Origin: Bacilli bacterium
GTDB lineage: Bacteria; Bacillota_I; Bacilli_A; RFN20; CAG-826
Direction of reading: 5' to 3'
Assembly: GCA_017442875.1 (NCBI GenBank)
Contig: JAFSPN010000025.1
Span: 1 to 56,294, forward strand
DNA length: 56,294 nucleotides
Shown piece after piece: positions 6,193-22,570 of this stretch. The position numbers and the translations under genes are program-made. Each line of letters begins with the position of its first letter. Positions within the stretch are counted from its first letter, which is position 1. Under the pieces are notes generated by a model that was not told where the DNA came from, ran no database searches, and saw only the letters and a program-made list of their open reading frames with translations.

Positions 6193-6230
6193 ACGACCAC
6201 ATGCATTAATTTGAGGTGGTCGTTTTATTT
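6193..6230. terminator. bidirectional intrinsic terminator
   Basis: ACGACCAC...GTGGTCGT forms an 8-bp stem with a T-run on the plus side and an A-run on the other side. It overlaps the stop codon of the minus-strand acyltransferase gene. Confidence 0.7.
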
Positions 6231-7049
6231 ATCTATTCTTTTTGAATTATTGAATATCGGTGGGTATGGATTTTCTTTCGGATCGACATCTGCAAGATGA
6301 CAAACAGCGTTATGAACGCGTGTTGTTAAATCGATTCTTTGCTCTTGTTCTGAGAGATTATCATCTTTTAAGATTGGTTCGCCCACTACCAAAGTGATGG
6401 CAACTTCTTGCCTCATAATATGTTTTCTAAACCAACTTGGTTTCCTAAAGGAAAAACCAAATGGTAGTATCGGTTTATTGGTGCGGCACGCTAAAGAAGC
6501 AGCGCCTAGTTTAAATGGACGAATATATGGGTAGCATTCCCACATACTGCCTTCTGCATATATTTGTAAGAATTCGCCTCTAGCAAGGGAATCTTCAATT
6601 GCTTTATTAAACGCTACTTTGCCAGCCAAATCACCATCAGGAATTGGAATTCCGCCCACCATTCTTACTAACGGTCCGTTTTCGCCTCTCACATTAGGGG
6701 CCCACACAATAACATGTGGCTTCCTTGGTCTAATGGCCTTCATGATGGCGATATAGTCCCACATATGAATATGATTACTAACTGTAATAGCCCCTTCTTT
6801 TAATTGATCTTTATATTTCTTAAGATTCTTTCTATTTTGGATTCTTAAACCCATATATAAAGGACACATTGGGAAAACAATGAGGTTTAATAATAAGCGT
6901 ACCCACCACTGTTTAAATCTAAAGCCTTTAGAACGATCAATATATGGATAATTTTCATCAAAAACTGCACCATTATTCTTTTTAACAACTAGATAATGAG
7001 CGTCAGTATTTTCTGGATAATTGTATTTAGTACTATGTGGGTCAAACAT
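6225..7049 (-). CDS. lysophospholipid (1-acyl-sn-glycerol-3-phosphate) acyltransferase family protein
   Basis: It carries the H-x4-D acyltransferase motif (NHIHMWD), an EGS block (YAEGSMW), and one TM helix near the N-terminus. Confidence 0.75.
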   Translation of the reverse strand: MFDPHSTKYNYPENTDAHYLVVKKNNGAVFDENYPYIDRSKGFRFKQWWVRLLLNLIVFPMCPLYMGLRIQNRKNLKKYKDQLKEGAITVSNHIHMWDYIAIMKAIRPRKPHVIVWAPNVRGENGPLVRMVGGIPIPDGDLAGKVAFNKAIEDSLARGEFLQIYAEGSMWECYPYIRPFKLGAASLACRTNKPILPFGFSFRKPSWFRKHIMRQEVAITLVVGEPILKDDNLSEQEQRIDLTTRVHNAVCHLADVDPKENPYPPIFNNSKRIDK

Positions 7050-7114: not shown

Positions 7115-8140
7115 GTAACCGTGGTACCCGAATTATAAGGGCGAGCCTTATCGATACCCGAGTTAAGCTGCATTCGCTGGTGATGCTTCTTTCTTACAAT
7201 GCGTTTTGAACTGAGTAGCGCATTGATGGCCAGCTTTCCTAAGTTATTTGCTTTAGGACTGTTACCCTCTTCGTCATGTCCGGTGCCGGATTTACTCTGC
7301 CAAGCTTTAACGCAGATGCCGGTGGCTATTGCTAGCCAGGTGGGGTCGTACCGATTACTGCTATTTCTAACAGCCGTTGCTAGTGCAACCAGTTAACTGT
7401 GGCTCTTTAATCCTCAGATGCTCCCGTGTCAGTTTAGAGGAGCTGGTTGACTGATCTAGTCTTAAGTTCTTTAGGCCATTTCTTCGCGGAATTTCCATTC
7501 TGGGTTCTTCCGTTATCTCCACACTTTGAGTTGAGTAATGTGGATTAGGCTTTTCCGTTATGTTTTGCATAACAGGATGCTTGTTTTTCCCTCTTCGTCT
7601 TTGTGTCCGGCGGAAGTCTTACGCTGTCAAACTCTAATTCAGCGGCTTCTGAAACAGTGAGGTTTGCCGTTTGGATTTCCCGAAGGATTTCCAGCCTTTT
7701 GCGATCATTGACTGGGAACTTTAATCCCAGAGCCTTACTATCAACGTCGTTTTAGTGGTGATCGTCTTACTTTTAAGGCTAAGTTTTCGCCCATTTGCTA
7801 TCTGTGCCATTACTGACCAGGTAACTTATTTCAGGTTTTGAGTTGCTTTAGCCTGAATGTGGGGGGTTGATGGGTAATTGGCCTTCATCATCCTCTTCGA
7901 TCGTGTCGGGCGGTGGATTTACGCTGTCAAACTCTAATTCAGCAACCACTGTAGCAGGGAGGATTCGCCTTGGTTGAATTGCTTCAACCTGCCAGTGCAA
8001 TCATTGATCTAGGCTTTTTCTTTAATCCTAGAAGACGCGTTATCAACTTAGCTTCCTACGCTGATTGTCTTACCTGGTCTTGAGATACTAAGAATCTATC
8101 AATTCTTAGTTTCTCACTCACTCGGTTTCCCGGGTGGGTT
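7085..8140 (-). ncRNA. candidate large structured ncRNA (about 1.05 kb) built from three tandem homologous modules of about 300 nt; class unassigned (GOLLD/ROOL/OLE-like size class)
   Basis: The region is ORF-free apart from two SD-less overlapping 65-67 aa ORFs and is visibly more G+C-rich than its flanks. It is bounded by a promoter-like site and a terminator. On the minus strand it has many tetraloop-capped hairpins: GGUUGAA-GCAA-UUCAACC (7972-7989), GGCUA-GCAA-UAGCC (7324-7337), CUGUUA-GAAA-UAGCAG (7358-7373), a UUCG-capped stem (7673-7692) and a 9-bp stem (8087-8110). An exact 25-nt repeat occurs at 7619-7643 and 7919-7943. Stem changes between modules are compensatory. Confidence 0.55.
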
Positions 8141-8397: not shown

Positions 8398-10113
8398 CTA
8401 TTTATATTGTGATGAATATAAGGAATAGTAGAATCCTTGTTTTTGCATTAATTCTTTGTGATTACCAGTTTCCACTATTCCACCATCTTTCATAACGATA
8501 ATAATGTCGGCTTTTTCAATTGTGGATAATCTATGAGCAATAACGATTGATGTTTTTTCTTTCATCATTTGATCAAACGCTTGTGTAATGAGCATTTCAC
8601 TACGAGTGTCGATATTAGATGTCGCTTCATCCAAAATGACTAGTTCAGGATTTAAGAGCATCACTCTAGCAATCGCAATCATTTGTCTTTGACCTTCTGA
8701 TAAACCAGATTTGTTACTCACTAACGTCATATAGCCATTAGGAAGAGTGTTAATAAAAATATCAGCGTGTGCCTTTCTTGCGGCCTCAACAACTTCTTCT
8801 TGGCTAGCCTCTTTTTTGAAGTAACGAATGTTGTCTAAAATCGTCCCACTAAAAATCCAAGTGTCTTGCAAAACCATACCGATTTTTTGTCTTAAAGATT
8901 GCTTAGAAATGTCCAAAGAAGATTGTCCGTTTATGCATATATTTCCAGAGACCGGATCATAGAATCTCATGAGTAAATTTATGAGTGTTGTTTTGCCAGC
9001 GCCAGTCGGTCCAACAACCGCTACTTTTTGACCTTTTTTGATTGCTAAGTTAAAGCCCTCAATAAGCTTCTGATTTTCACTATATGAGAAGGTCATGTTT
9101 TTAAATTCAATAGACTCAATTGAAGAGATATTGTCGAATCCGTCATCAACATCGTTTTCAAGATTTAAGAAGTTATTAATCCTAGTAAAAGACGCCTTAG
9201 CATTCTCATATTCTGCAGCGACATTTGAGATCTCGTTAAATGGTTTACTATATTGATTTGTATAGGATAAAAAGCTTGACAACCGACCAATGGTCATGAC
9301 TGCGAAAACGACCGCAAGCTTTGCATCATATGAGAGCATAACAACGCCAACAACACCGATTAAAATGTAAATTGTGTTGTTCACTAATCTTGTTGATGGA
9401 TTGACCCAACAAGCAGAAAACTGCGCAGATCTGGCTTCTTTTTGCAGTTTTCCGTTCATTTCGCCGAATTTTCTAATAGATTCTTCCTCATAATTCAAAG
9501 ATTGGACTATATCGATGTTATTAAGCGTTTCTAATGAGATAGAGGAGACATTAGCTTGAAGTTCACTTTGCTTTTTGAAACGCTGACGATTGGCTTTCGA
9601 AATGATGTTTGCCATGATCATACTAAGCGGGGAGAGAACAATAACGCCAACGGCCAAAATCCAGTTCACTGCAAACATCATGATAATCGTTACAGCAATG
9701 GTGAAAATACCTTGAATTAATGTTTTGAAGACAGCATATAATCCAGCGGATAAATTCTCCATATCTCTAATCTCAAGAAGCACTAAATCACCATGGGCTT
9801 TTTGATCAAATTCTTTTATCGAAATAGCGTTGATTTTTTCAAAGACATCGTCTCTTGCTTTTTTAATTATTTTTTGAGAAACATTCATTACAATAACTTC
9901 AAAAATATAAGCAAAAATAGCGCCGATAACGACCAAGCCAAGAGCGATGAAAACATAAATATAAAACTCTTTTTGTTCAGCATCTAGCGCTCTGCCCAAT
10001 AAGAAAGGTTGTCCGATTTGGCTGATAGTAAAAAGCAAAGCAAAAAGTAGCGAAGTGACAAGCGACACACGCATTGGTTTTAAATATTTAAACAATCTCT
10101 CTTTAGATGTCAT
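8398..10113 (-). CDS. ABC exporter fused permease/ATPase subunit with a consensus ATP site
   Basis: It has a six-TM N-terminal half, Walker A GPTGAGKTT, signature LSEGQRQ, and Walker B VILDEATS with the catalytic Glu. Confidence 0.9.
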   Translation of the reverse strand: MTSKERLFKYLKPMRVSLVTSLLFALLFTISQIGQPFLLGRALDAEQKEFYIYVFIALGLVVIGAIFAYIFEVIVMNVSQKIIKKARDDVFEKINAISIKEFDQKAHGDLVLLEIRDMENLSAGLYAVFKTLIQGIFTIAVTIIMMFAVNWILAVGVIVLSPLSMIMANIISKANRQRFKKQSELQANVSSISLETLNNIDIVQSLNYEEESIRKFGEMNGKLQKEARSAQFSACWVNPSTRLVNNTIYILIGVVGVVMLSYDAKLAVVFAVMTIGRLSSFLSYTNQYSKPFNEISNVAAEYENAKASFTRINNFLNLENDVDDGFDNISSIESIEFKNMTFSYSENQKLIEGFNLAIKKGQKVAVVGPTGAGKTTLINLLMRFYDPVSGNICINGQSSLDISKQSLRQKIGMVLQDTWIFSGTILDNIRYFKKEASQEEVVEAARKAHADIFINTLPNGYMTLVSNKSGLSEGQRQMIAIARVMLLNPELVILDEATSNIDTRSEMLITQAFDQMMKEKTSIVIAHRLSTIEKADIIIVMKDGGIVETGNHKELMQKQGFYYSLYSSQYK

Positions 10114-10114
10114 T

Positions 10115-11911
10115 TCAACTCCTCTTCACCTGTGTCTCATATATCTCTTTATAAATTGGACAATTATTTAACAAATCATCGTGCTTTCCTTGCCCCACAA
10201 CTTGTCCACCTTCTAAAACCAAGATGAAATCAGCGTTTTGAATCGTCGATATTCTTTGAGAAACAATAACTTTGGTCATTTCTTTAATAGCGGCTATATT
10301 TGTTCTAATCTTTTTATCAGTTAAAAGATCTAACGCTGACATCGAATCATCAAGAATTAATAACTCAGGTTTTTTAACTAATGCCCTACCAATGCACAGC
10401 CTTTGTTTCTGGCCACCTGAATAGTTAGAAGCGCCTTCTTTAACGGGATGATCGATTTTGTCCTCATATCTATCAACAAACTCAAAAGCCTCTGCTTGTT
10501 TTAAAGCGCTATAAATATCTTCATCACTTGCGGTCTTGTTGCTCATTAAATAATTGGACTTAATCGTGCCATTGAATAACGATGATTTCTGATTAACTAA
10601 TCCAATATCATTTCGTAAAGCTTTTAAATCATATTCCCTGATAGGAACACCTTTGTAATAAATCGTGCCTTCAGAGACATCGTAAAACCTTTCTATTAAG
10701 TTAATAATCGTGGTTTTACCGCTACCAGTTCCACCGATAATGCCGAACGTTTCGCCTTTTCTTATCTCAAAGTTGAGATTATTTAAAAAATAAACACCAT
10801 CATTAAATGAAAAACTGACATTTTCAAATTTAATGAGTTCTTCGCCTGCTTTTACTTCGCTAATTTTAGAATTCGTATTGCTGGTAATTTCTGATTCAAT
10901 AGCAAAAACGGTATTGATTCTTCTTCGGCAAATGCCGGCTTTAACAATTTCCACACTGATTTGCGATAACTGTGTAAAGGCAAAGAATATCTGTGCCAAG
11001 AAAGCCATTTCGGCAATAATTGTGGAAGATACTAAAACGCGATTCTCAAATAAATCATTTTGTAATAACAAAACAATGACAATTAAGACTGTTGAAGTGA
11101 TTGCAAATGTTAATGGATTGATAAGGGCGTTAAGGCGATTTACTTTAATGCTCTTTTCTTTATAAGATCTCGTTTTTTCTTCAAATTTTTGGTTTTCTTG
11201 TTTTTCTTGATTACTTGCTCTTATGACACGCGCACCATCACTTGTTTCGTTTGTGCTTTCTGACAAACCTTCTAAGTCATTTTGAATTTCGATATATTTC
11301 TTTGATGATTGTTTAAGAATCAAAATGTTGACTAAAAGCACTAAAGGGGCAATGGCGGTGAAAGCCAAACCCACTCTCCAATCCAAAACAAAGGAAAGAA
11401 CAAGTGAGCCAATAACAGTAAAAGGAGCGCGAACAATTAGTCTAATTAGTAAGTAAACGCCTTGCTGCACTTGATAAGTATCACTATTCAATAAGGTGAC
11501 TAGCTTAGCTTCGCCTATATCTTCTCTTTCTTTTTTGGATAAGCTTAATAATTTAGCGTATAAAGAGGTTCTGATTTCCGTTCCGACATTTGTTGAAGCT
11601 CTCGCGGCCAAATATTGGCTACACATGGTGATAGCATATCCGACAATGCCCATTATCAGAATGATTAGAGCTCCAGCAATCGCATCCCCTATCGCAGTTT
11701 TGCTAGGATTAAAAATCCTAATAAAAGAAGCTAAACGAGAACTTATAATATGCGGAATATCGCTAGGATTTTGGTAGGCATTTAAATCAATAATAGCCTT
11801 CATGAATAAAGGGATAAGCAAATCAAAAAATGCTTCAATAATCTTTAAGAACGGACCAAAGATGATGCTAGCAAGATTGCGTTTATATGACTGTTCAACT
11901 CTCGTTATCAT
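10115..11911 (-). CDS. ABC exporter fused permease/ATPase subunit with a degenerate ATP site
   Basis: It has Walker A GGTGSGKTT and signature YSGGQKQ. Walker B is LILDDSMS, with Asp replacing the catalytic Glu. Its stop lies 1 nt before the next start, which suggests translational coupling. Confidence 0.9.
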   Translation of the reverse strand: MITRVEQSYKRNLASIIFGPFLKIIEAFFDLLIPLFMKAIIDLNAYQNPSDIPHIISSRLASFIRIFNPSKTAIGDAIAGALIILIMGIVGYAITMCSQYLAARASTNVGTEIRTSLYAKLLSLSKKEREDIGEAKLVTLLNSDTYQVQQGVYLLIRLIVRAPFTVIGSLVLSFVLDWRVGLAFTAIAPLVLLVNILILKQSSKKYIEIQNDLEGLSESTNETSDGARVIRASNQEKQENQKFEEKTRSYKEKSIKVNRLNALINPLTFAITSTVLIVIVLLLQNDLFENRVLVSSTIIAEMAFLAQIFFAFTQLSQISVEIVKAGICRRRINTVFAIESEITSNTNSKISEVKAGEELIKFENVSFSFNDGVYFLNNLNFEIRKGETFGIIGGTGSGKTTIINLIERFYDVSEGTIYYKGVPIREYDLKALRNDIGLVNQKSSLFNGTIKSNYLMSNKTASDEDIYSALKQAEAFEFVDRYEDKIDHPVKEGASNYSGGQKQRLCIGRALVKKPELLILDDSMSALDLLTDKKIRTNIAAIKEMTKVIVSQRISTIQNADFILVLEGGQVVGQGKHDDLLNNCPIYKEIYETQVKRS

Positions 11912-12016: not shown

Positions 12017-14965
12017 ATGAGTAAAACATTTATTTCGTATTCGTCAAACGATCAGCTTTTTGCTGACCGTCTTGTTGCCTATCTTGAAGACAAGGGAATT
12101 CCTTGTTGGATTGCCTCTCGCGACATTCCAAGTGGCAAAGATTTTACTGAGTGCATTACCGAGGCTATTGAAAACTGTCAATACTTTGTATTAATTGGTT
12201 CTGAAAGTTCCAATATATCTCGCCAAGTCAGAAATGAAATAGCCATGGCTTTTGATCAAGAAAAAACCATCATTCCCTATAAAATTGAAGACTTTAAATT
12301 TTCCGACTCCATCAACTACTATTTAAGATTAAAGCAATACATTCACGCTTTTAGGTATTCAGAAACGGAAGGCTTTGACAGACTCGCCAATTCAATTCTT
12401 AACGACATTAAAGAAATTGCCGACGACAAAATGTCTTATGCACCAGCATTAGAAAGTGATCTTGGATCTGACTTTGATCGAAAAAGAATCGGTGAATTAT
12501 TAATTGAAAGGAATAGGAAATACCCTTCTTCACTCTACTCAAAATTTAACAAGCAAAAAGAGAAGGTTGACGAGTATCGCCAATTATCCAGCGTTTTTTA
12601 TAAGCAAGCCTTTACATTAAAACATCTCAATAAAGCAATCGAAACCGATGATTTAATCAATGAACTTATTGATAGAATTGAAGATTGTAACCAAGAGATG
12701 GTCTTTAGATTACAAGCACCAGCGGGTGTTGGCAAAAACCATCTCATGCAATCGTTATTCTTTAATATGATAGAAAGATTCATGAATAACGAGAGTGATA
12801 TCCTTCCTATCTATATTCCTTTTGATTATTTCACGAAGGTGAATAGAAATGACCATGATTCGGAAATTTCGATGTATACCATTTTAAAAAATGAATATAT
12901 TGAGGCTATTAACTTCTGTTTAAACAACCATGAAGTCACCGCTTTTATCATGTTTGATTCCATCACAAATTATTTAATTTCACAAAAACCACCGGAGACG
13001 TGCACTAAAAGATTGTTCTCGTTCCTACCAAACATCAAAAAAGCAATGGCTATTGACCGCGGCCCAACGAGAAACCCAATAAGACTTAAAAAAGACTACA
13101 TTTTCATGGATCAAATACCCCGCTATATCATCGAGGCTAATTTAATTTTTGCATCCGATAAAGAAGGCGCGATGAAATATTTGGAAACAGTCTGTAAATT
13201 ATTTGATTGTAGTGTTACTCCAGAAGATATTTACGAAACAAGCAAAGAATTAGGCTTTGGCTGGTTTGATCCTAGCATTTGCAATCTCATTGAAGAAGAG
13301 ATTATGGGTAATATTTCTGACATCTCTTCTTTAACCATGGCAGATGTTTATGAAAATCATGTTTTAAGAATATTAGATAATAACAAGAACGCTTTAGTGG
13401 CCACTGCGAAGATGGCATATCGCTACATGACCACCAACGAAAAATTTGACGACGAATATTCTAACGATGGCTGGATTGTTATTGGTAAACATGGAACATT
13501 CACTTCTTTCTTAATGGCATACTATCTAAGGTGCGAATTAGAAAATTATTCTAAAGAAAGCAATCCTGAATGTTTTATTAGATTCTATCCAAAACGCGTT
13601 GTTAGTTTTATTGCCATGTATATTGAAAAATCAAACGTTCTCCAAAGAGCGGTTATTAACTTAATTAAAGATAATTACAAGGAAAGAAACGACTCTGAAA
13701 GAGCGAGATTGATTTTCTGGGCTGCCTATATATCCAACCCCGCTTTAAAATCTGAAATCGATCAATTTGTGCTCGATGAATTAAAACGTATCACACCACT
13801 AGTAAAAGAGAGTAATAAAAAGAACCCAGAAGAAGATACCGAAGGTGTAAGATCGTTACAAATTCTTTATCGAATCCTTGTTCAAGTATCTCTTGAAATG
13901 GGCAAGACCACATATATTGATGGCTTCTTATGCAATTTGCTTGTCTCCGACCAAGCTAACAGTATAAACAAAGGTTATTTGTTGTTCTATTACAGTGATG
14001 TCCCTGTAGATTTCACCGAAAGATCAATACGTTTTTATGATCCAGTTGAACTTGGTTTTAGAACAATCAATCGTTTAAACGAGATATTATCAACCGAACT
14101 ATCTAGTCCACGCAACAACCGACCAATCGAGTTGTTCTTGTTCTCCTTCTTCTCCCTTTTGCAAACACGTATTGAGTTTGGCACGCCAGAACTCCCCAGA
14201 GTGGATTTGGTCCAAATGTGTAAAAACGCTATTAAATACTTCCAACAATATAAGAGGAGGCAATCAGTTATTACCTCAAGAAGAACAATACGATACTTTG
14301 AAAGTATGTGTGAAGACTTTAGCACTTTCATTGAAAGAGGAAGAAAAATTAATTTCGGCGCGGAAATTCTCAATCCGATGCTCAATCCAAACCTCACACC
14401 AAGAGCAAACTGGCAAGGTGTCAAAACAAGCCGCGTTGAAACAGTAGCAGAACACTTGTATGGCACTTTCTTAATCGGTATGTTCCTTTTACCAGCGCAA
14501 AGTAATGATGCGGAAGGATATAACAAAAAAGAAATCCTAGATATGCTGTTAATTCACGACATTGGTGAGGTACGTGCGGGTGATAATTCCAGTATAGTTA
14601 ACGAAACACAAAAGCTGGTTGATGAAGCTAATGAAGACAAAGAAATGCGCATGCTCATGCAAAAAGGCACATACGCAGAAATCGCTAACTTATCAACATT
14701 CTATAATCAATGGAGTGGCTTCGAAGAGAAAATGAATGTCAACGCCAAGATAGCTCACGACATTGATATTATTCACACAATCTATCGCTTTTTGCTTTAT
14801 TACAACGAATCCAAAGAAAACTTCACACAAGAAGAAATCGAAGCCTTTGCGGATAGACGCAACGACATCATTACAGAAATCGGCATGAAAACATACCAAA
14901 CGATTATCTTGGATAACGAATTGTTCTTTGATGCATGCCAAGAATTAGGATTAGAAATTATCTAA
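12017..14965 (+). CDS. TIR - STAND-like P-loop NTPase - helical region - YfbR-type HD phosphohydrolase fusion protein
   Basis: A GGAG SD is present. The TIR domain reads TFISYSSNDQLFADRLVAYLEDKGIPCWIASRDIPSGKDF...SRQVRNEIAMA. The P-loop is QAPAGVGKN and the Walker-B-like motif is AFIMFDS. The C-terminal HD reads VAEHLYGTF...LLIHDIGEVRAGD, the 5'-deoxynucleotidase YfbR/HDDC2 pattern. Confidence 0.75.
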   Translation: MSKTFISYSSNDQLFADRLVAYLEDKGIPCWIASRDIPSGKDFTECITEAIENCQYFVLIGSESSNISRQVRNEIAMAFDQEKTIIPYKIEDFKFSDSINYYLRLKQYIHAFRYSETEGFDRLANSILNDIKEIADDKMSYAPALESDLGSDFDRKRIGELLIERNRKYPSSLYSKFNKQKEKVDEYRQLSSVFYKQAFTLKHLNKAIETDDLINELIDRIEDCNQEMVFRLQAPAGVGKNHLMQSLFFNMIERFMNNESDILPIYIPFDYFTKVNRNDHDSEISMYTILKNEYIEAINFCLNNHEVTAFIMFDSITNYLISQKPPETCTKRLFSFLPNIKKAMAIDRGPTRNPIRLKKDYIFMDQIPRYIIEANLIFASDKEGAMKYLETVCKLFDCSVTPEDIYETSKELGFGWFDPSICNLIEEEIMGNISDISSLTMADVYENHVLRILDNNKNALVATAKMAYRYMTTNEKFDDEYSNDGWIVIGKHGTFTSFLMAYYLRCELENYSKESNPECFIRFYPKRVVSFIAMYIEKSNVLQRAVINLIKDNYKERNDSERARLIFWAAYISNPALKSEIDQFVLDELKRITPLVKESNKKNPEEDTEGVRSLQILYRILVQVSLEMGKTTYIDGFLCNLLVSDQANSINKGYLLFYYSDVPVDFTERSIRFYDPVELGFRTINRLNEILSTELSSPRNNRPIELFLFSFFSLLQTRIEFGTPELPRVDLVQMCKNAIKYFQQYKRRQSVITSRRTIRYFESMCEDFSTFIERGRKINFGAEILNPMLNPNLTPRANWQGVKTSRVETVAEHLYGTFLIGMFLLPAQSNDAEGYNKKEILDMLLIHDIGEVRAGDNSSIVNETQKLVDEANEDKEMRMLMQKGTYAEIANLSTFYNQWSGFEEKMNVNAKIAHDIDIIHTIYRFLLYYNESKENFTQEEIEAFADRRNDIITEIGMKTYQTIILDNELFFDACQELGLEII

Positions 14966-17186
14966 TAACATCGATGATGCTAATATCTTCATCTCTTAAG
15001 CCTCTTTGCTTTTTGGCAATTAAGAGATTGTGATAAGTACCACCTTGATTCATATAAGCGCCCTTCTCATCCTGTAAAACTTTTTCAAAACCATCCCAGA
15101 TAGCAATCATTTTCTGGGATCTTTTGATGTTATATAGGGCAGCGCCCAAATAGATATAATCAGGATCATCAATAACTTTTAGCGAAACACATTGGGCAAT
15201 TAAGTTTCTCCAACGATTTTCATCATCTTCATTAAAACGATAACCACATGCTTTTGCATCATTTTTAATGCTTTCTACATACTTTTCATACGGCATTGGA
15301 ATAGCCGCTTTTATGGTGATGCCGAGTTCAACTGCGCATTCGGCGATTAAAGTATCAGCGCCATAGGCGAAGTTTGTTCTCACCACAACACGGTAATCTT
15401 TTTGATAACCTTTTAAGATATCTTTGATTTTTTCTTTCAACCCCGGATATTCCATCGAAAGATCACGATGACCACAACCAGTAACGTTCAAGACCGGTTT
15501 CCAACCTCTTCTATACGAATAAATACGAACACCGTGTCCTTTTTCATAGAGCAACGGAACCATATTTTCAATCATTTGATAGTCTTTCTTTTTATCAATT
15601 TCACTAAGGACATCAAATGGAACGATGTCTTTATGAATTTTCTTCTTGTTTCTTTCTTGACTGTCTTTATAGTCAGTGCCATATTTCCAACCAGCGGCAA
15701 GTTTTTCTCTCACCCATCGTAGATGCTCTTCTCTAGCAAGGAAGGATAAATCGTTTTTATTACCATTTCCATCTTCTTCATCTGAGAACTTTTCAACAAT
15801 GGGATAATCAAGTTCCTTGTCGCTATAGAAGCAGTTGATAAGTTCCAATTTCCAAGAATATGATTTAGCTTGTTCAATGTTGGAAATCTTATATTCTAAC
15901 GGTAAATCGTTAAAGTCTTCAGGAACATTCGGTTTTTCACCATTATCCAAACATAGTTTGATATAACTATTATGGATTGCCAAAGCAAAGTCCGCTAAGT
16001 TGATAAGCTTATCACTGCTCGCGAATGTCTTGATGTCTTTATGCTTGTGCTCGATTTTAAATGCGGCATTGATTTTTACGTGTGGAATAACCGCATCAGT
16101 AATTTTGCTTAAGAACTTACCATTAATAATCTCGTTAGCGTTCTTGTTATCATAAGTACCATCGATCATTCTGTGGCAGGAGTCATCATCAAAGATGAAT
16201 AGGAGATTGATGCTTTCATCATCAACACCCATTCTAAAATCCCAAGCGATTGGGGTTTTCTTGCTTTTCAAGCCGAAGGCTTGCCTATCCCAGTTTTGTA
16301 GCTCATCACATAACATGAGAAGATAAGCTAATGGGTGAACGTTCATCGATGTTGGATGTTTAATGCCTGTTGTTAAATCTAAACCAAACCTCACGATGCT
16401 GTTGTGGAGCAATATTGCTGTTAAAGCATCTAATAATGGTTCATTTAATGGAATACGCTCCACCATCAATTGATGAGCGATAATAATAGAAGAGAAATAA
16501 GCATGATCAGCAAAACCAATGCCAAGTGGTCTTTTTTCCAATAAATCAAAGAGCTGCTCATATGAAAAATAAGTAAGTCTTTTAGAAACCGCTTCTGCAT
16601 ATAACTCTGTGAGCGTTTTCTTTTTGCTAACGCTTTGCCAGTCTTCCGACAAAGTTAATAATTCATCGATATCAAGATAGGCGACATGGGGCACTTTCAT
16701 CTCTTCCCCCAAAGTATCTTTCACATAGTTTTTGATTTGTTCATGCGCTAATTGGAAAGGATAACCAATATCATGGAAAAGACCCACCAAACCCCAATAT
16801 CTTAAAAAATCTGTATCGCTAAAATGTTCTTTATCATAAAAGCATTTTATTTTGTTTCTGAATGACAAGTTATTCGCGTATATAGCCAAGCCTAGTGCAA
16901 AAACATAAACGGAATGGGAATAATGGTCTCTATGTTTTTCAAGTAGTTCACCACTATGGTATTCGTGGTCAGAAAGGAATTCGACCAGTTTACCTAATCT
17001 ATCATATGAAGAACCGAATATTTTGAATATTTCACAATAACAATAATAGACAGTAAAAGCGTCTTCTTTCTTACCAGAAAGACAGAAACTATGTAACGAG
17101 CGCTTTAGACAGTCTAAATCATTTTTATCAATATCAAAACTACTATCAAAAAACTTCGTTGATAAATCGGCTAAGTGTTCATACAT
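14958..17186 (-). CDS. HD phosphohydrolase - RyR domain - SLOG (LOG/DprA-like Rossmann) fusion protein
   Basis: The N-terminal HD reads HYSHSVYVFALG...GLFHDIGYPFQ...LCDELQNWDR. The RyR domain reads EEHLRWVREKLAAGWKYG...IVPFDVLSEIDKKKDY. The C-terminal SLOG-like module reads AYGADTLIAECAVELGITIKAAIPMPY...IAIWDG...NQGGTYH. Its stop overlaps the stop of the TIR gene by 8 nt. Confidence 0.65.
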   Translation of the reverse strand: MYEHLADLSTKFFDSSFDIDKNDLDCLKRSLHSFCLSGKKEDAFTVYYCYCEIFKIFGSSYDRLGKLVEFLSDHEYHSGELLEKHRDHYSHSVYVFALGLAIYANNLSFRNKIKCFYDKEHFSDTDFLRYWGLVGLFHDIGYPFQLAHEQIKNYVKDTLGEEMKVPHVAYLDIDELLTLSEDWQSVSKKKTLTELYAEAVSKRLTYFSYEQLFDLLEKRPLGIGFADHAYFSSIIIAHQLMVERIPLNEPLLDALTAILLHNSIVRFGLDLTTGIKHPTSMNVHPLAYLLMLCDELQNWDRQAFGLKSKKTPIAWDFRMGVDDESINLLFIFDDDSCHRMIDGTYDNKNANEIINGKFLSKITDAVIPHVKINAAFKIEHKHKDIKTFASSDKLINLADFALAIHNSYIKLCLDNGEKPNVPEDFNDLPLEYKISNIEQAKSYSWKLELINCFYSDKELDYPIVEKFSDEEDGNGNKNDLSFLAREEHLRWVREKLAAGWKYGTDYKDSQERNKKKIHKDIVPFDVLSEIDKKKDYQMIENMVPLLYEKGHGVRIYSYRRGWKPVLNVTGCGHRDLSMEYPGLKEKIKDILKGYQKDYRVVVRTNFAYGADTLIAECAVELGITIKAAIPMPYEKYVESIKNDAKACGYRFNEDDENRWRNLIAQCVSLKVIDDPDYIYLGAALYNIKRSQKMIAIWDGFEKVLQDEKGAYMNQGGTYHNLLIAKKQRGLRDEDISIIDVIR

Positions 17187-17245
17187 AAATAATTACCCCA
17201 ATAAGGATATTATAACGGCACTTATTGTTTTTTAAAACCAAATGC

Positions 17246-17875
17246 CTAAATATAATGACTTAAAACAACCCAAACCGCTAAAAGTATAAGAATGCATCCA
17301 CCAATAATAACAGATATTTCCGTTTTGCCCTTTAATAGTTTTAAGATTTGTTTGCCGAGGAACAGACCGATTAAACACATTACAAAGGTAATCACGCCGA
17401 TAATGGATATGTGTAACCAGATTGTAAGATTATTCGATAAACCAGCATATAAAGATATACCAACCGCCATCGCATCGATCGCGGTCGCCACACCCATAAT
17501 TAATACTTCTTTAATAGAAAATAGTTTAGTTTGTTTTTTTTCGATAGGTTTTCTAATTTCAACAATGCCTTCAATAACCATTTTGATACCGATGAGCAAT
17601 AAAAGGGTGAAGGAAACCCAAGTAATAACAACACCAAAGATATGAATCGCATCAGAAGAATCGCTTGATCCAACGGCAAACGATATTAATTCAACAGCAA
17701 AATAGCCAATTGCTGGCATAAGCGCTTGCATAATTCCAAATGTCGCGGCAATAAAGAAAATTTTCTTCTTATTGATATCGCTATAAACTAGACCATCAGT
17801 CAAAGCGACAGCAAAAGCGTCCATTGCTAAAGCAATTCCAAAGAAAATGATGCTAACAATTATTTCCAAAGTCAT
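17246..17875 (-). CDS. mntP: manganese efflux pump MntP family
   Basis: It has six TM helices in a duplicated arrangement, with the two characteristic motifs LAMDAFAVA and TAIDAMAVG. A TATAAT box ends 7 nt before the ATG and no SD is present, so the mRNA may be leaderless. Confidence 0.85.
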   Translation of the reverse strand: MTLEIIVSIIFFGIALAMDAFAVALTDGLVYSDINKKKIFFIAATFGIMQALMPAIGYFAVELISFAVGSSDSSDAIHIFGVVITWVSFTLLLLIGIKMVIEGIVEIRKPIEKKQTKLFSIKEVLIMGVATAIDAMAVGISLYAGLSNNLTIWLHISIIGVITFVMCLIGLFLGKQILKLLKGKTEISVIIGGCILILLAVWVVLSHYI

Positions 17876-18123: not shown

Positions 18124-20466
18124 ATGGACGATTTTAGACTCTATTTTATAACATTTATAACCGCCATTTTTATAATTGGTGGTTATAGCCTGACTAAACT
18201 GCTACTCAAAACATATAACAAAAATGTCGATGGTTTTAAGAAGTGGTTTTTAATTGCCTTAGCTGGTGTAACAGGTTTAATTATATTAACCGCTCTTTTC
18301 TTAGTGCCTGGAGCAATGGCTTCTAAGACATGGGATAATGGGCATTTAGCACCATGGATTGGTTGTATCAACTTAGTGGGTGTTCCTTATGGCGATAACA
18401 AGTTCTTAAACTTCTTAGCGTGGTTAGGCAATGCCTTCTTCTTACCGACCGCAATCATTGTGATATTTGATGTTTTCTTCCCATCAAAAGTTAGCAAGCT
18501 AATTAATAAATACATTGCATGGCCTGTTCTTTTGATCGAACTCTGGTTTATCTCCAACTTTGTGAGATCGCTATTAGGTTTAACGATTTTTAATTATCAA
18601 TCGATTTTATTGGCGCTTGAAGTTGGCTTATCGTTTGCTTTATCAACAATCTGTTTCCTAAGAGATAGAAAAGACATAAAACCATCTTCTTGGAAAGAAA
18701 TAGTATACTTTATCGCTTTCTTCTTATTCGTATTCATCGCTTGTTTACCAGTCGGTACATTTAGCACACTATTTGATACTGAGGTTAGTTATCTTGGTGC
18801 GTTAGGTAGTTCTTGGAGAGTTGTTGACTTCAAACTCATGCATCGTTTATACATTTACGCCGGTATTTTAATTCCTGTTCTCATTTACTTTGTAAATAGG
18901 GATAGGGATGAAAACGCTAACAAAGTTTTATTACTTTCAATGTCCATTGGTGTAATATCTGTCTTCTTCTCAGAATATGGATTCCAAGGCATTTTCCCAG
19001 TTGACGCTAACGGTAATTTAACAATTAGTGTCGGTCACTTACCAATTCACTTATGTCATACCGCTTTATTTGTGGTACCACTCTGTATTGCTTTTAATTT
19101 CAAAAGATTGTTCTATTTCACATATTTTATCAATGTCTTCGGTGCGGTAATGGCGATGTTATGGCCAAATGTTGGTGAGACACAAAACATGTTTGATAGC
19201 GGGGTTATCCTCTTCTGGTATAACCACATTGCCGCTTATTCGATGCCTTTATTAGCGGTCGCCCTCGGCTTATTCCCAAAACCAAAGATGAAACAAATGC
19301 TCTGGTCGTTGTTGTTCTTTGGCATTTATATGGGCTCAATTGTCATCGCTAACGCATGGTTATCTAATTACGTTTCTGGCTATGATCCAAATAAGTTAGG
19401 TACCGGTACTGACTACTTATTCATTAATGGCACTTATATCCTAGATATATTATCCGATAAAGCTTATCACATGCTTGATAACAAGGTGGTATTCAACATC
19501 GGTAAAAATACATTAGTTATTTATCCACTTTATCAAGGCTTATTCTTCCTTGGTTATGTGGCTATTGCTTTTGGCGTTTGGTTTGTCTATTCATTATTCT
19601 TTAGAATCGCCGACGCCCACAAAGATTTGCACAATCACATTGTGATAATGAGAAAACAGAGAATTACTTTTAAGGAGAAGATGGAAATGGCAAAGATTAA
19701 CGAAAGCGCTTTAAATCATGAAAAAGCAACACTAAAATTCATCAACTTTTCAAAAAGATACGGTAACTCCGCGAAATTAAGTGCTGACCACGTTAATTTG
19801 GAAGTTAACGGTGGCGAAATATTTGGTTTCCTTGGCCCTAATGGTGCGGGTAAATCCACATGTATTAAAACCACTATCGGTATTCAACCAGTCACGGAAG
19901 GCGAAATCGAAGTATGCGGCTATAACGTTTCTAACCAATCTGTCTTAGCTAAAAGAGTGATTGGCTATGTCCCAGACCACTACGCTTTATATGAAAAATT
20001 AACGGGACGTGAATATATTAACTATATCGCTGACCTATATGGCGTCAATAAAGATGATCGTGACAAACGCATCTCTAAATACGTCGACTTATTTGAATTA
20101 AATCAAGCATTTGATAATAGAATGCAAACATATTCACATGGCATGAAACAAAAGATGACCATTATGGCCGCTTTAATTCATAATCCAAAAGTATGGATTC
20201 TCGACGAACCATTAACGGGCTTAGATCCTCAATCCATCTATCAAGTTAAAGAAGTGATGAAAGAACACGCTAAGGAAGACAATATTGTGTTCTTCTCATC
20301 TCATATTATTAACGTCGTTGAAAAACTATGTACACGTATTGCCATTATTAAGAAAGGGCAAATCGTTTTCGTCGACACGATGGAAAACGTTGAAAAGAAC
20401 CATCCAGAAGGTTTGGAAGAGTTCTATATGAACACGATTAGAGATAACGGAGATTTAGATGAATAA
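18124..20466 (+). CDS. fusion of a membrane domain of about 520 aa (YwaF/TP0381-like, HLPIHLCH motif) with a C-terminal ABC ATPase
   Basis: It has Walker A GPNGAGKST, signature-like YSHGMKQK and Walker B WILDEPLTGLD. More than 12 TM helices lie upstream in the same ORF. Confidence 0.8.
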   Translation: MDDFRLYFITFITAIFIIGGYSLTKLLLKTYNKNVDGFKKWFLIALAGVTGLIILTALFLVPGAMASKTWDNGHLAPWIGCINLVGVPYGDNKFLNFLAWLGNAFFLPTAIIVIFDVFFPSKVSKLINKYIAWPVLLIELWFISNFVRSLLGLTIFNYQSILLALEVGLSFALSTICFLRDRKDIKPSSWKEIVYFIAFFLFVFIACLPVGTFSTLFDTEVSYLGALGSSWRVVDFKLMHRLYIYAGILIPVLIYFVNRDRDENANKVLLLSMSIGVISVFFSEYGFQGIFPVDANGNLTISVGHLPIHLCHTALFVVPLCIAFNFKRLFYFTYFINVFGAVMAMLWPNVGETQNMFDSGVILFWYNHIAAYSMPLLAVALGLFPKPKMKQMLWSLLFFGIYMGSIVIANAWLSNYVSGYDPNKLGTGTDYLFINGTYILDILSDKAYHMLDNKVVFNIGKNTLVIYPLYQGLFFLGYVAIAFGVWFVYSLFFRIADAHKDLHNHIVIMRKQRITFKEKMEMAKINESALNHEKATLKFINFSKRYGNSAKLSADHVNLEVNGGEIFGFLGPNGAGKSTCIKTTIGIQPVTEGEIEVCGYNVSNQSVLAKRVIGYVPDHYALYEKLTGREYINYIADLYGVNKDDRDKRISKYVDLFELNQAFDNRMQTYSHGMKQKMTIMAALIHNPKVWILDEPLTGLDPQSIYQVKEVMKEHAKEDNIVFFSSHIINVVEKLCTRIAIIKKGQIVFVDTMENVEKNHPEGLEEFYMNTIRDNGDLDE

Positions 20467-22570
20467 ATTTAAAAACTTCATCACTAATAATCGCTTTGCT
20501 AGTGGCGCTCACCACTGGTTTAGAGACTTTATTACTTTAATTGCTATGCAGTTAAAGGAGCATTTAAGTTTCTCTTTTAAAGCCGATAAAAAAGGTGCGT
20601 TGACCAAGATTATCTTGTTCGCCATTCTTTTAATTGGTGTGACTGCGATTATCGCCGTTGTTTTCTGGTTATTAGGATATTTGAATATCGTCGGTAATGG
20701 CATCATTCCAGTACCACTATTCAATATTTTGCTTTACTTTGTGATGATTCTTAACATCTTCTCTTGTTTACATAAGCTCACCAAGTCTTTGTACTTTAGC
20801 GAAGATAATCAAGTTTTATTAAGCTATCCAGTTAATAGCGGCGTTATTTTCCTATCTAAATTAGTGGTTTTCTACATCTTAGAATTAGTAAAAAGCTTTG
20901 CTTTCTTAGTGCCTTTATTCTTAGCATATGGTATCACTAATATCATCCCCACAAATTCAATCACAGTAATGATTGGCTATATCCCATGGGTTTTCTTCTG
21001 TTTCTTTATCATTTCCTTTATTCCTGTGGCTATAGGCGCATTACTATCCATCCCATATATGTACGTCTTATCCTTCTTAAAGAGATCACAATATATTCAA
21101 AGCATTTTAGCTTTCCTTGCTATTATGACTATTGTCGTCTTCCTATTCATTGGTTTTAGCAAGATACCGGCAAACCTTCAAATTGCTTCTAAGTGGGCCA
21201 CAACTTATTACCCCCGTGTCATTGGTTTCTCAGAAACTGTCGAAAAATATGCTGGCCCATTATACTTTGTGGCGATGCTCGTTCTTGGCTACTATGGCTA
21301 TGAACACAGTGGCAATCCACACGCTTTAAGAATTGTTAACGCTAATACCGGTTTAGTCTTACTTGGCTTTATCGGTGTCATCTTAATTTTACTCGTCATT
21401 AGTTATTTCTTAGCGAAGCCATTATTCTTTAAGATGGCCACTAAACCATTTGAATATCAAAAGAAGATTATTAACCATAACTATAAGCTCAATATCGAAA
21501 AGGCTGATATTTCAATTAAAGCCTTTAGACCAAAACTTCAATATCCAATCTCCAAAAAGGATAGAGAAGGTATTATTAACAAGCTCTCAAGATTATTAAG
21601 GAGAGTGAATAGAGAAGAAAAACTCTTCTTGAGAAGAAAAATTGATAATAAGAGAATTTTAAAGTTCTTAAATAAATATTCCCACTCCTTAAGGTTTGAA
21701 ATCATCGATGCTTCCGAAATCACTGATTTTGGTTTCATTGTTGAAAAACGAAACGAAGTTCCGTTCCTAGTGCTCGTAAAAGATAAGAATAAGAATGTTT
21801 ATTCCTGTTACGACCCATACTATCTAGGCAAGAAAAACCGCGTTAAAGATAAGAGATTAACGTTGTTTGTTAAAGAAATCTTATTAGATACTAGAACACC
21901 AGGAATTATGCTATCTAATTTCTTGCTATTTATCATTACGCCTTTAGCCATTTCTTTGTTAAATGCTTTATTCGCTGCCATCAACACATCTTTCCAAGGA
22001 AAGACATATACTGTCATGTTTAACGTTTTGATTATTATGCTCATCGTTTTAGCGAGCAATGTCACAATGGCAAGCATCTATTCAAGAGAAGGTAAAACCT
22101 CATATATGCTTAAGGCAATGCCTGTTAACTATATGGCGTCACTAGCCTTTAAGCTCATCATTAGAGCGGTTATCGTAATCGCTTCTTTAGCGGTGACAAT
22201 TATTCTTTATTCAACATATTGCAAAATCAGTTTCATTAGGTATGACTTATTGTTCTTTACCTTTGTCTTTATCTATCTAGGCCACCTCTTATGGTCAGCG
22301 GAACTAGACTTTATGAACCCTAAAGATAACTTGTATGCCGCTTTAGGACAAAATGTTAATAATCCTAACGAAACCACAAGTGCGATATTAACGTTTATTA
22401 TTTCTTTTGCGATGATGGGCATTTCCTTCTTCTTGATATCCACAGAAGTCTCGAATGCTTTCATTAAACTATTTATTATTGGTCTCATCTTCTTCTTAGC
22501 GAGATTAGGCCTATTTGTCTTAAAGATTCTTGCTTATGGCACATCGAGGGCGGAAAGGAGGGATAGCTAA
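20459..22570 (+). CDS. large polytopic membrane protein, putative ABC-exporter permease partner
   Basis: Its ATG overlaps the preceding stop (ATGAATAA). It has two clusters of TM helices separated by a basic cytoplasmic region of about 150 aa. Confidence 0.55.
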   Translation: MNKFKNFITNNRFASGAHHWFRDFITLIAMQLKEHLSFSFKADKKGALTKIILFAILLIGVTAIIAVVFWLLGYLNIVGNGIIPVPLFNILLYFVMILNIFSCLHKLTKSLYFSEDNQVLLSYPVNSGVIFLSKLVVFYILELVKSFAFLVPLFLAYGITNIIPTNSITVMIGYIPWVFFCFFIISFIPVAIGALLSIPYMYVLSFLKRSQYIQSILAFLAIMTIVVFLFIGFSKIPANLQIASKWATTYYPRVIGFSETVEKYAGPLYFVAMLVLGYYGYEHSGNPHALRIVNANTGLVLLGFIGVILILLVISYFLAKPLFFKMATKPFEYQKKIINHNYKLNIEKADISIKAFRPKLQYPISKKDREGIINKLSRLLRRVNREEKLFLRRKIDNKRILKFLNKYSHSLRFEIIDASEITDFGFIVEKRNEVPFLVLVKDKNKNVYSCYDPYYLGKKNRVKDKRLTLFVKEILLDTRTPGIMLSNFLLFIITPLAISLLNALFAAINTSFQGKTYTVMFNVLIIMLIVLASNVTMASIYSREGKTSYMLKAMPVNYMASLAFKLIIRAVIVIASLAVTIILYSTYCKISFIRYDLLFFTFVFIYLGHLLWSAELDFMNPKDNLYAALGQNVNNPNETTSAILTFIISFAMMGISFFLISTEVSNAFIKLFIIGLIFFLARLGLFVLKILAYGTSRAERRDS

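Follow-up and report, generated by a model that had tools for sequence, protein, structure and literature searches.

A convergent gene pair encoding an NLR-like TIR protein and an RyR/SLOG protein: probably an undescribed Thoeris-like anti-phage module

Signalling by nucleotides derived from TIR domains is common to bacterial, plant and animal immunity. To our knowledge, the domains so far known to receive such signals in bacteria are SLOG, Macro, caspase-associated ones and a few more. In a December 2025 preprint (10.64898/2025.12.03.692087), 29 putative types of Thoeris are catalogued, and the portion of it that is available lists as SLOG effectors those of type I (SIR2-SLOG) and type III (SLOG, with multiple TIRs), besides 4TM-SLOG and SLOG-Patatin; RyR or HD effectors are not mentioned in that portion, and TIRs in Avs and standalone proteins were deliberately excluded as non-signalling. 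Type III Thoeris combines several TIR proteins with the SLOG effector ThsD (van den Berg et al. 2024, cited in the same preprint). On the phage side, a May 2026 preprint (PMC13232231) reports that phage ryanodine receptor (RyR) Repeat12 (R12) proteins, named RyDEP, cleave or tightly sequester two isomers of cyclic ADP-ribose (cADPR), 2'cADPR as well as 3'cADPR. In RyDEP, H75 and D117 are catalytic, W78 stacks on adenine and H100 contacts phosphates, all of them conserved across PF02026, and six of eight phage R12 homologs bind without cleaving, despite high conservation. LOG-type SLOG domains, in turn, are N-glycosidases (PMC9503650). Here we describe a pair of genes, A and B, in a stretch of 56,294 nucleotides (nt) from a Bacilli bacterium (contig JAFSPN010000025.1; hereafter the window), which, judging from sequence, probably constitutes an undescribed Thoeris-like anti-phage module.

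Gene A is an open reading frame (ORF) of 982 amino acids (aa) at 12017-14965 on the plus strand (+); its Pfam matches and the architecture of its family mark it as similar to nucleotide-binding leucine-rich-repeat receptors (NLRs), with a TIR domain, a predicted NACHT-type STAND NTPase, a helical array and an HD_3 domain. Gene B, an ORF of 742 aa at 14958-17186 on the minus strand (-), shows in its AlphaFold2 (AF2) model an HD-like domain, which a small beta-rich linker joins to a tandem RyR (R12) domain, and lastly a SLOG domain. The two are convergent, lying tail-to-tail: the TAA stop of A occupies 14963-14965 and the stop of B 14958-14960 (minus strand), and the ORFs share the 8 nt at 14958-14965, just as the original prediction had placed them. 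The same arrangement is found in two metagenomic contigs (L001 and L002), where B is 92% and A 73% identical. The pair matches no PADLOC or NCBIfam system model, and the literature that we searched makes no mention of "RyR domain" together with SLOG, which, with the absence of RyR and HD effectors from the available part of the Thoeris catalogue, agrees with the earlier remark that no described system is known to have this architecture.

The RyR domain of B, formerly taken for a passenger, is probably central, because R12 binds or cleaves 2'/3'cADPR (PMC13232231) and because RyR is the constant partner of the A family (see below). It is a tandem Repeat12-like domain at aa ~390-550 (15537-16019, -), recognised by PF02026, by Foldseek and by matches to RyR1-3 repeats in the PDB. 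The Pfam match spans aa 483-550 with 36.1 bits (cutoff 27.4), and PF02026 is present in all 48 of 48 family members. In the AF2 model one sees a complete tandem domain, matched by Foldseek to human RyR3 Repeat12 with probability 1.0; the structural counterpart is human RyR3 848-1055, which was crystallised with ATP and ADP, and phage "RyR domain-containing" proteins also match by fold. Within the second repeat, H488 and W491 are invariant while H518 and D535 are at least 90% conserved, and these four correspond to H75, W78, H100 and D117 of RyDEP, with identical spacing in both (3 from H to W, 17 from H to D), in a mapping made through the RyR1/3 repeats and not by direct alignment to RyDEP. 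A tblastn search with the R12 of B against 50,697 phage records produced a single match, unannotated, at MT836912.1:3925-4467. This 8.3-kb 'Bacteriophage sp.' record from human faeces shows 30% identity to the whole of the R12 (E 2e-17), and could represent either an RyR protein of a phage or a bacterial contig that was filed wrongly.

The C-terminal SLOG domain of B (aa ~560-742; 14961-15509, -) was classified as YpsA-like by Foldseek and by conservation of the motifs GxGHR, GAD, WDG and QGGT. Its best fold match is YpsA (2nx2; E 6e-5, target template-modelling score 0.63), and further matches include ShosA, DprA, LOG, the Moco carrier protein and the SLOG of ThsA with 3'cADPR (7uxs), as well as many phage SLOG proteins, with target template-modelling scores up to 0.74. 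G572-H573, G609, D698 and G716-T717 are invariant, and A610, D611, G699 and G715 reach at least 90% conservation; the Pfam matches to YpsA, YAcAr and DprA are all sub-threshold. Both domains had been predicted, and both assignments hold, RyR by Pfam and fold and SLOG by fold. That B recognises molecules derived from ADP-ribose (ADPR) is the most secure point that we infer, being compatible with the explanation favoured below and with two serious rivals to it.

The N-terminal domain of B (aa 1-315; 16242-17186, -) is all-helical and, on the strength of its motifs RxxYSHS and FHDIGYPF, is probably a very divergent HD phosphohydrolase. The HD domain proposed here originally draws support from its H...HD...D motifs, which are conserved: H88/H91 and H138-D139 do not vary, and conservation of D294 reaches at least 90% (20-48 sequences). 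D227-H228 and H261 are also invariant, and the stretches R-D-H-Y-S-H-S and F-H-D-I-G-Y-P-F resemble the dGTPase/SAMHD1 signature. Profile and fold searches, on the other hand, did not confirm it. Matches to PF01966, the only family recurring in this part of the protein and always in the same region of it, remain sub-threshold (14-17 bits against 22) in 6 of 48 and 4 of 10 members. An hhalign comparison with Escherichia coli Dgt brings the metal-ligand motifs into register with E 9e-4 and a probability of 22%. Profiles of 13 and of 20 sequences each had 0 matches among PDB sequences, and a Foldseek search of the PDB with a separate AF2 model of residues 1-315 gave nothing significant (best E 0.89; Cas3 HD at probability 0.08). 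By hhalign, no relationship was found between this domain and the HD_3 of the A family. It is the motifs alone that would suggest a SAMHD1/Dgt-like enzyme.

The family of B counts at least 1,985 database clusters, which match it over the full length with 46-56% identity, and relatives occur in 467 of 185,579 species-representative genomes, the carriers being mostly Christensenellales, Borkfalkiaceae or Coproplasma-type gut Clostridia, with some Coriobacteriia. The AF2 model, made from 48 homologs, has a predicted local distance difference test score of 86.9 and a predicted template-modelling score of 0.88. When B was compared with Pfam, NCBIfam and PADLOC, only RyR scored above threshold and no ThsA, SIR2 or other defence model was matched, so that by sequence B is not a known Thoeris effector. 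Some homologs of ~553 aa carry the HD-like and RyR domains without SLOG (L096:16484-18145; also L081, L082, L085 and L087-L090); they occur in Flavonifractor, in Coriobacteriaceae and Eggerthellaceae metagenome-assembled genomes and in a multi-TIR island, and their existence implies that SLOG is dispensable for the core of the B family.

Protein A opens with a TIR domain (aa 5-123; 12029-12385, +; PF13676, TIR_2, E 1.2e-22, 81 bits against a cutoff of 28) that has a putative catalytic Glu74 and gives weak matches to the PADLOC models ThsB, SAVED_TIR and Aga_TIR. There follows a central STAND module (aa ~200-790; 12614-14386, +), defined by family-level conservation, in which a P-loop (Walker A APAGVGKN, aa 234-241) precedes a helical array. 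The C-terminus is a YfbR/HDDC2-type HD_3 domain (aa 794-954; 14396-14878, +; PF13023, E 5.4e-19, 69.1 bits against a cutoff of 22.5; PF12917, YfbR-like, E 2.7e-4), whose relatives among PDB sequences are 2cqz, 5yox (YGL101W) and 4dmb (HDDC2). In an alignment (A3) of seven sequences of the A family, 27-92% identical, no variation is seen at TIR E74, at G237 and K240 of Walker A or at the HD_3 ligands H813, H847-D848 and D915; in alignment A4, the P-loop residues G234, G237 and K240 are at least 90% conserved, while in A5 K240 falls just below 90%. The family Walker A pattern GxxGxGK is conserved, that of A itself ending in GKN and not in GK[ST].

Word-indexed database searches with A retrieved only a close clade of five full-length clusters (P0121-P0125), and it was through an exhaustive HMMER search with the central 640 residues that the wider family came into view, comprising 110 representative clusters, most of them ~1,000 aa long and with the same layout. 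Protein A has no Pfam NTPase match of its own; among 46 relatives, NACHT was matched in 7, NPHP3_N in 6, KAP in 1 and AAA_16 in 1. The TIR-STAND-HD composition that had been predicted is supported, with TIR_2 and HD_3 above the Pfam cutoffs and the NTPase at the level of the family (NACHT in 7 of 46 and a conserved Walker A). Apart from TIR, no PADLOC Avs or bNACHT model matches A, and the score against NCBIfam NF058526 (type III ThcB4) is 16.4 bits, with a cutoff of 220. HD_3 is found in 44 of the 46 family members, and the N-terminus varies (TIR in 14, PNP_UDP_1 in 7, and PRTase-CE, metallophosphatase and CHAT in 1 each). By its predicted architecture, then, A can be placed with the NLR-like STAND proteins of the bNACHT/Avs kind, its family swapping the N-terminal domain, and a constant, apparently catalytically intact C-terminal YfbR-type HD appears to be unusual in such a family. 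Since HD_3 is constant while the N-terminus is exchanged, it sits where STAND proteins usually carry their sensor; this does not support the earlier proposal that it is a second effector, and the architecture points no less to a function in sensing or regulation than to one as effector. One homolog, P0130 (L092:5341-8364), was called as a protein of 881 aa without TIR, in a locus that also has a HipBA toxin-antitoxin pair. We considered it as a natural TIR-less member and rejected it, as a TIR coding region lies just upstream, split over two frames by a frameshift or an assembly error.

In order to examine linkage from the side of B, ORFs were called in 80 species-representative loci, and TIRs were detected with an iterated profile seeded on Pfam-confirmed TIRs. 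We observed a TIR gene within 10 kb of B in 26 of the 80 loci, directly adjacent in 15, and TIR density was 6.4 per 100 kb within 2 kb of B, as opposed to 1.4-2.4 per 100 kb at 2-10 kb; in the window, there is no TIR other than that of A in the rest of the 56 kb. In those B loci that are fully flanked, i.e. with three called genes on each side (n=45), TIR was present in 16, proteins with transmembrane (TM) helices and RyR in 14, SLOG-SLATT in 5, parts of a ParA-like cassette in 13 and none of these in 12. The TIR partners of B are architecturally diverse, including A-like proteins (window, L028 and L066), TIR-LRR_5 proteins and other clusters, sometimes with two to four per locus. The A relatives that adjoin B in L028 and L066 are only 27-29% identical to A. 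Even more distant A-family members on three long contigs (L096, L097 and L098) each have a TM-Rossmann-RyR gene within ~3 kb, and L096 in addition encodes a SLOG-less B homolog (29% identity over residues 27-553). Altogether, of the nine contexts sampled, six had an A-family gene next to B or to an RyR-domain gene, and it is RyR-domain proteins, not SLOG, that are the constant partner of the A family. The association of A with B, and of B with TIR genes, is real and repeated, yet facultative. Of the two-gene module proposed originally, a non-random association of the B family with TIR genes is supported; the pair is not an obligate module, for A homologs exist without B and 12 of the 45 fully flanked B loci have no candidate partner, each gene thus occurring alone as well.

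The commonest neighbour of B, in ~35 loci, is a ~725-aa protein that begins with TM helices, continues with a Rossmann-like segment and ends in an RyR domain (Pfam RyR E 1.8e-5 in L048); it could be a membrane effector gated by its RyR domain. Examples, of ~620-790 aa, are found at L003:5822-7996, L048:12241-14109, L096:10770-12749, L097:14725-16746 and L098:12710-14503, and such genes also stand beside distant NACHT-HD_3 genes in multi-TIR islands. In nine loci B is adjoined by SLOG-DUF4231 (SLATT) proteins of ~590 aa (e.g. L013:12343-14118), whose SLOG is of the same subtype as that of B (E 2.4e-16). There is also a recurrent cassette in which TM-RyR, B and TIR are followed by a helical protein (~700-900 aa), an AAA_31 ATPase that resembles ParA and another helical protein, this one of ~795 aa. 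It can be seen at L012:12248-19000 and in similar form in L003, L016, L018, L034, L047, L055, L056, L072 and L078; its TIR is TIR-LRR_5 or another kind, its AAA_31 ATPase has ~320 aa, and AdoMet_dc and radical SAM genes often follow it. Every non-TIR partner combines RyR or SLOG with a portion that looks like an effector, as signal-gated effectors are usually built, and the pair in the window is a minimal version of a larger, variable network. Up to this point we have dealt with what can be read directly: domain identities (other than the HD of B), conservation of the predicted catalytic and ligand residues, and the repeated linkage of A with B and of TIR with RyR/SLOG genes.

The explanation that we favour, and to which we give an even chance, is that A and B represent, in minimal form, a Thoeris-like network, as yet undescribed, whose signals are molecules derived from NAD, with a TIR-NLR signalling to an RyR/SLOG-gated hydrolase. 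We infer in this scheme all of the biochemical steps and the direction in which the signal passes, as well as the substrate of the HD-like domain and the role against phages. A phage cue would be read by the helical array of A, by its C-terminal HD_3 or by both, and the NACHT module would oligomerise in an NTP-dependent manner, so that the N-terminal TIR domains would be assembled and act on NAD+. Their product, derived from ADP-ribose and either an isomer of cADPR or something related, would next bind to B through the R12 pocket, SLOG or both, and binding would switch on the N-terminal HD-like metal-dependent hydrolase of B, which is possibly dNTPase-like and would deplete a nucleotide pool and arrest the infected cell. 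A is cast as a TIR-NLR sensor because of its conserved Glu74, the NACHT matches in its family and the conserved Walker A, and B as receptor-effector because SLOG (in ThsA) and RyR-R12 (in RyDEP) each bind TIR-made cADPR isomers in characterised proteins. The scheme draws further support from the clustering of TIR genes on B and from the placement of A-family genes beside B or RyR genes in independent lineages (the window with L001 and L002; L028 and L066; L096, L097 and L098). The diversity of TIR partners also supports it, because ThsB is likewise diverse in Thoeris, as do the recurrent partners, because each fuses a ligand-binding to an effector-like domain (HD-like/RyR/SLOG, TM-Rossmann/RyR and SLOG/SLATT). 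Finally, phage counterparts of the RyR and SLOG domains of B fit an arms race over the same ligands.

Several observations weigh against this scheme. No PADLOC defence model matches B or its partners, beyond weak TIR matches, the genes around A and B are housekeeping ones with no recognisable defence island, and the HD fold of the B N-terminus was not confirmed by profile or fold searches against the PDB. Being convergent, A and B are not co-transcribed. Among the fully flanked B loci, 12 of 45 are without a TIR, RyR or SLOG partner, and, conversely, B is absent from the vicinity of three A homologs, P0125 and P0130 (48-50% identity) and P0131 (36-39%), on contigs that are short (among L092-L095). 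Moreover, as killing effectors such as PNP and CHAT can replace TIR, the TIR of A may be a terminal NADase effector and not a generator of signals. A rival explanation is that A is a self-contained abortive-infection protein of the Avs/bNACHT type, which on sensing phage would oligomerise and merely deplete NAD+ with its TIR, and B a neighbour that is unrelated or only loosely associated, brought there by the clustering of accessory or defence genes at a variable locus. The range of killing domains that the family places before NACHT-HD_3 (TIR, PNP, CHAT, PRTase-CE and metallophosphatase), the B-less A homologs beside ROK, RecX or BirA genes, the convergent orientation, and the decision of the Thoeris survey, in its available portion, to drop Avs and standalone TIRs as non-signalling (10.64898/2025.12.03.692087) would all fit. 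However, we regard this as unlikely, given that in six of the nine contexts sampled, across very divergent lineages, A-family members adjoin B or TM-RyR genes, that TIR density peaks sharply at B, and that the two types of ligand-binding domain in B are those known to recognise TIR products.

We hold it about as improbable that B is a signal-processing or off-switch enzyme, in which R12 would, like RyDEP, cleave 2'/3'cADPR at its ribose-ribose bond and ADPR would be processed further by the HD-like and SLOG domains, resetting TIR signalling, preventing autoimmunity or salvaging NAD+ much as ring nucleases act in type III CRISPR. B does have equivalents of the RyDEP catalytic dyad (H488 and D535; PMC13232231), its presence in 467 species, often without a TIR neighbour, is compatible with a general role in metabolism or regulation, SLOG domains of the LOG type are N-glycosidases (PMC9503650), and the TM-RyR and SLOG-SLATT membrane proteins could be the real effectors of multi-gene loci. 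Yet R12 residues do not predict catalysis, seeing that six of eight phage homologs only bind (PMC13232231), the SLOG of B is closer to the YpsA/ThsA-type sensors than to LOG enzymes, and in the window, where there is no other effector candidate, an off-switch could regulate only the TIR of A itself. Finally, B might be a housekeeping protein of nucleotide metabolism or regulation in Christensenellales-like Clostridia, its proximity to TIR genes having no functional meaning. This would accord with the size of the family and its full-length conservation at 46-56% identity, with the recurrence of B beside ABC exporters, MarR/MntR-type regulators and mntP, and with the 30 of 79 loci that have no partner within three genes; nonetheless, a TIR density near B three to four times that of the distal flanks, an association with several unrelated TIR architectures in distant lineages and the existence of phage counterparts of its domains make it very improbable.

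The immediate surroundings of the pair are as originally described, with an ABC exporter pair on the side of A (8398-11911, -) and, on the side of B, mntP (17246-17875, -) followed by an ABC-fusion gene. GC content at the locus is 0.34-0.38, with no compositional anomaly. A scan for promoter-like sites found TTTAAA-16-TATAAT at 17209-17236 (-), within the 59-nt gap between mntP and B, matching 10 of 12 consensus positions, and a site 5' of A at 11882-11911 (+) matching 9 of 12; both are matches to the consensus only. The ABC fusion is part of a region at 18124-22570 (+), where a 780-aa protein joining a TMEM164-like membrane domain to an ABC ATPase overlaps by 8 nt with a 703-aa multi-pass membrane protein, a pair conserved in L001. 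Elsewhere in the window, three copies of Rfam RF02946 ('cow-rumen-1 RNA') lie on the minus strand at 7892-7952, 7590-7652 and 7266-7325 (83, 73 and 70 bits; gathering score 53.4), ~320 nt apart, in a GC-richer stretch between the ORF at 6225-7049 and the ABC exporter genes.

RyR-R12 had been tied to TIR signals only as phage counter-defence (the 2026 preprint PMC13232231), whereas this locus and its relatives suggest that bacteria themselves use R12, with or without SLOG, in fusion with enzymatic or membrane effectors and in linkage with TIR genes, including those of NLR type. If so, Thoeris-like immunity would gain a new effector class and a new class of TIR-NLR signal producers, abundant uncultured gut Clostridia (Christensenellales-like) would carry an uncharted family of signalling systems, and there would be a tractable bacterial system for R12 as a receptor of cADPR isomers, a question still unsettled for animal ryanodine receptors. 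A bolder reading, which we consider possible if rather doubtful, is that host R12 domains are bona fide receptors of TIR-made cADPR-type signals and that A is a TIR-NLR that signals to separate effectors (the HD-like-RyR(-SLOG), TM-Rossmann-RyR and SLOG-SLATT proteins), in the manner of plant TIR-type NLRs (TNLs), instead of killing by depletion of NAD+. This would imply a prokaryotic origin for the animal link between cADPR and the ryanodine receptor, and a bacterial counterpart of the plant pathway from TNL through small molecule to effector.

When compared with known systems, the pair resembles type I Thoeris in that a TIR protein adjoins a protein whose C-terminal SLOG may read a cADPR isomer and gate an N-terminal enzyme. 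Unlike ThsA, B has no SIR2 by Pfam, PADLOC or NCBIfam, its N-terminus being HD-like and all-helical, and R12 is placed between this domain and SLOG; and unlike the small ThsB, the TIR of A is embedded in a 982-aa NACHT-HD_3 protein, with A and B convergent and not always linked. With type III Thoeris the likeness is that of a SLOG effector accompanied by multiple TIRs, as there are two to four TIR genes in several B loci (L007/L066, L048, L054 and L070), whereas A scores far below the cutoff of the ThcB4 model, B has no NCBIfam match of any kind, and the RyR and HD-like domains of B are not described for ThsD in the available part of the catalogue. As for phage RyDEP, the R12 of B is likewise PF02026, keeps the H-x-x-W, H and D residues and matches phage RyR proteins by fold; however, RyDEP is a homodimer, while the R12 of B is a tandem repeat in a single chain, encoded by the host and fused to HD-like and SLOG domains, and in contrast to immune evasion its proposed role is on the host side, as receptor or regulator. 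Burroughs and colleagues reportedly noted, in 2015, SLOG-TIR/PNP associations (the TPALS clade) in nucleotide-centric conflict systems; although the best SLOG matches of B are YpsA-like, its linkage to a family with TIR or PNP at the N-terminus would mirror the association by which that clade is defined. Lastly, A shares with Avs/bNACHT proteins an effector-type domain at the N-terminus that can be swapped, a predicted NACHT-type NTPase in the centre and, in the position of the sensor, a C-terminal region, but differs from them in that this region is an apparently intact YfbR-type HD_3, not TPR or WD40, and in that A recurs beside RyR-domain genes.

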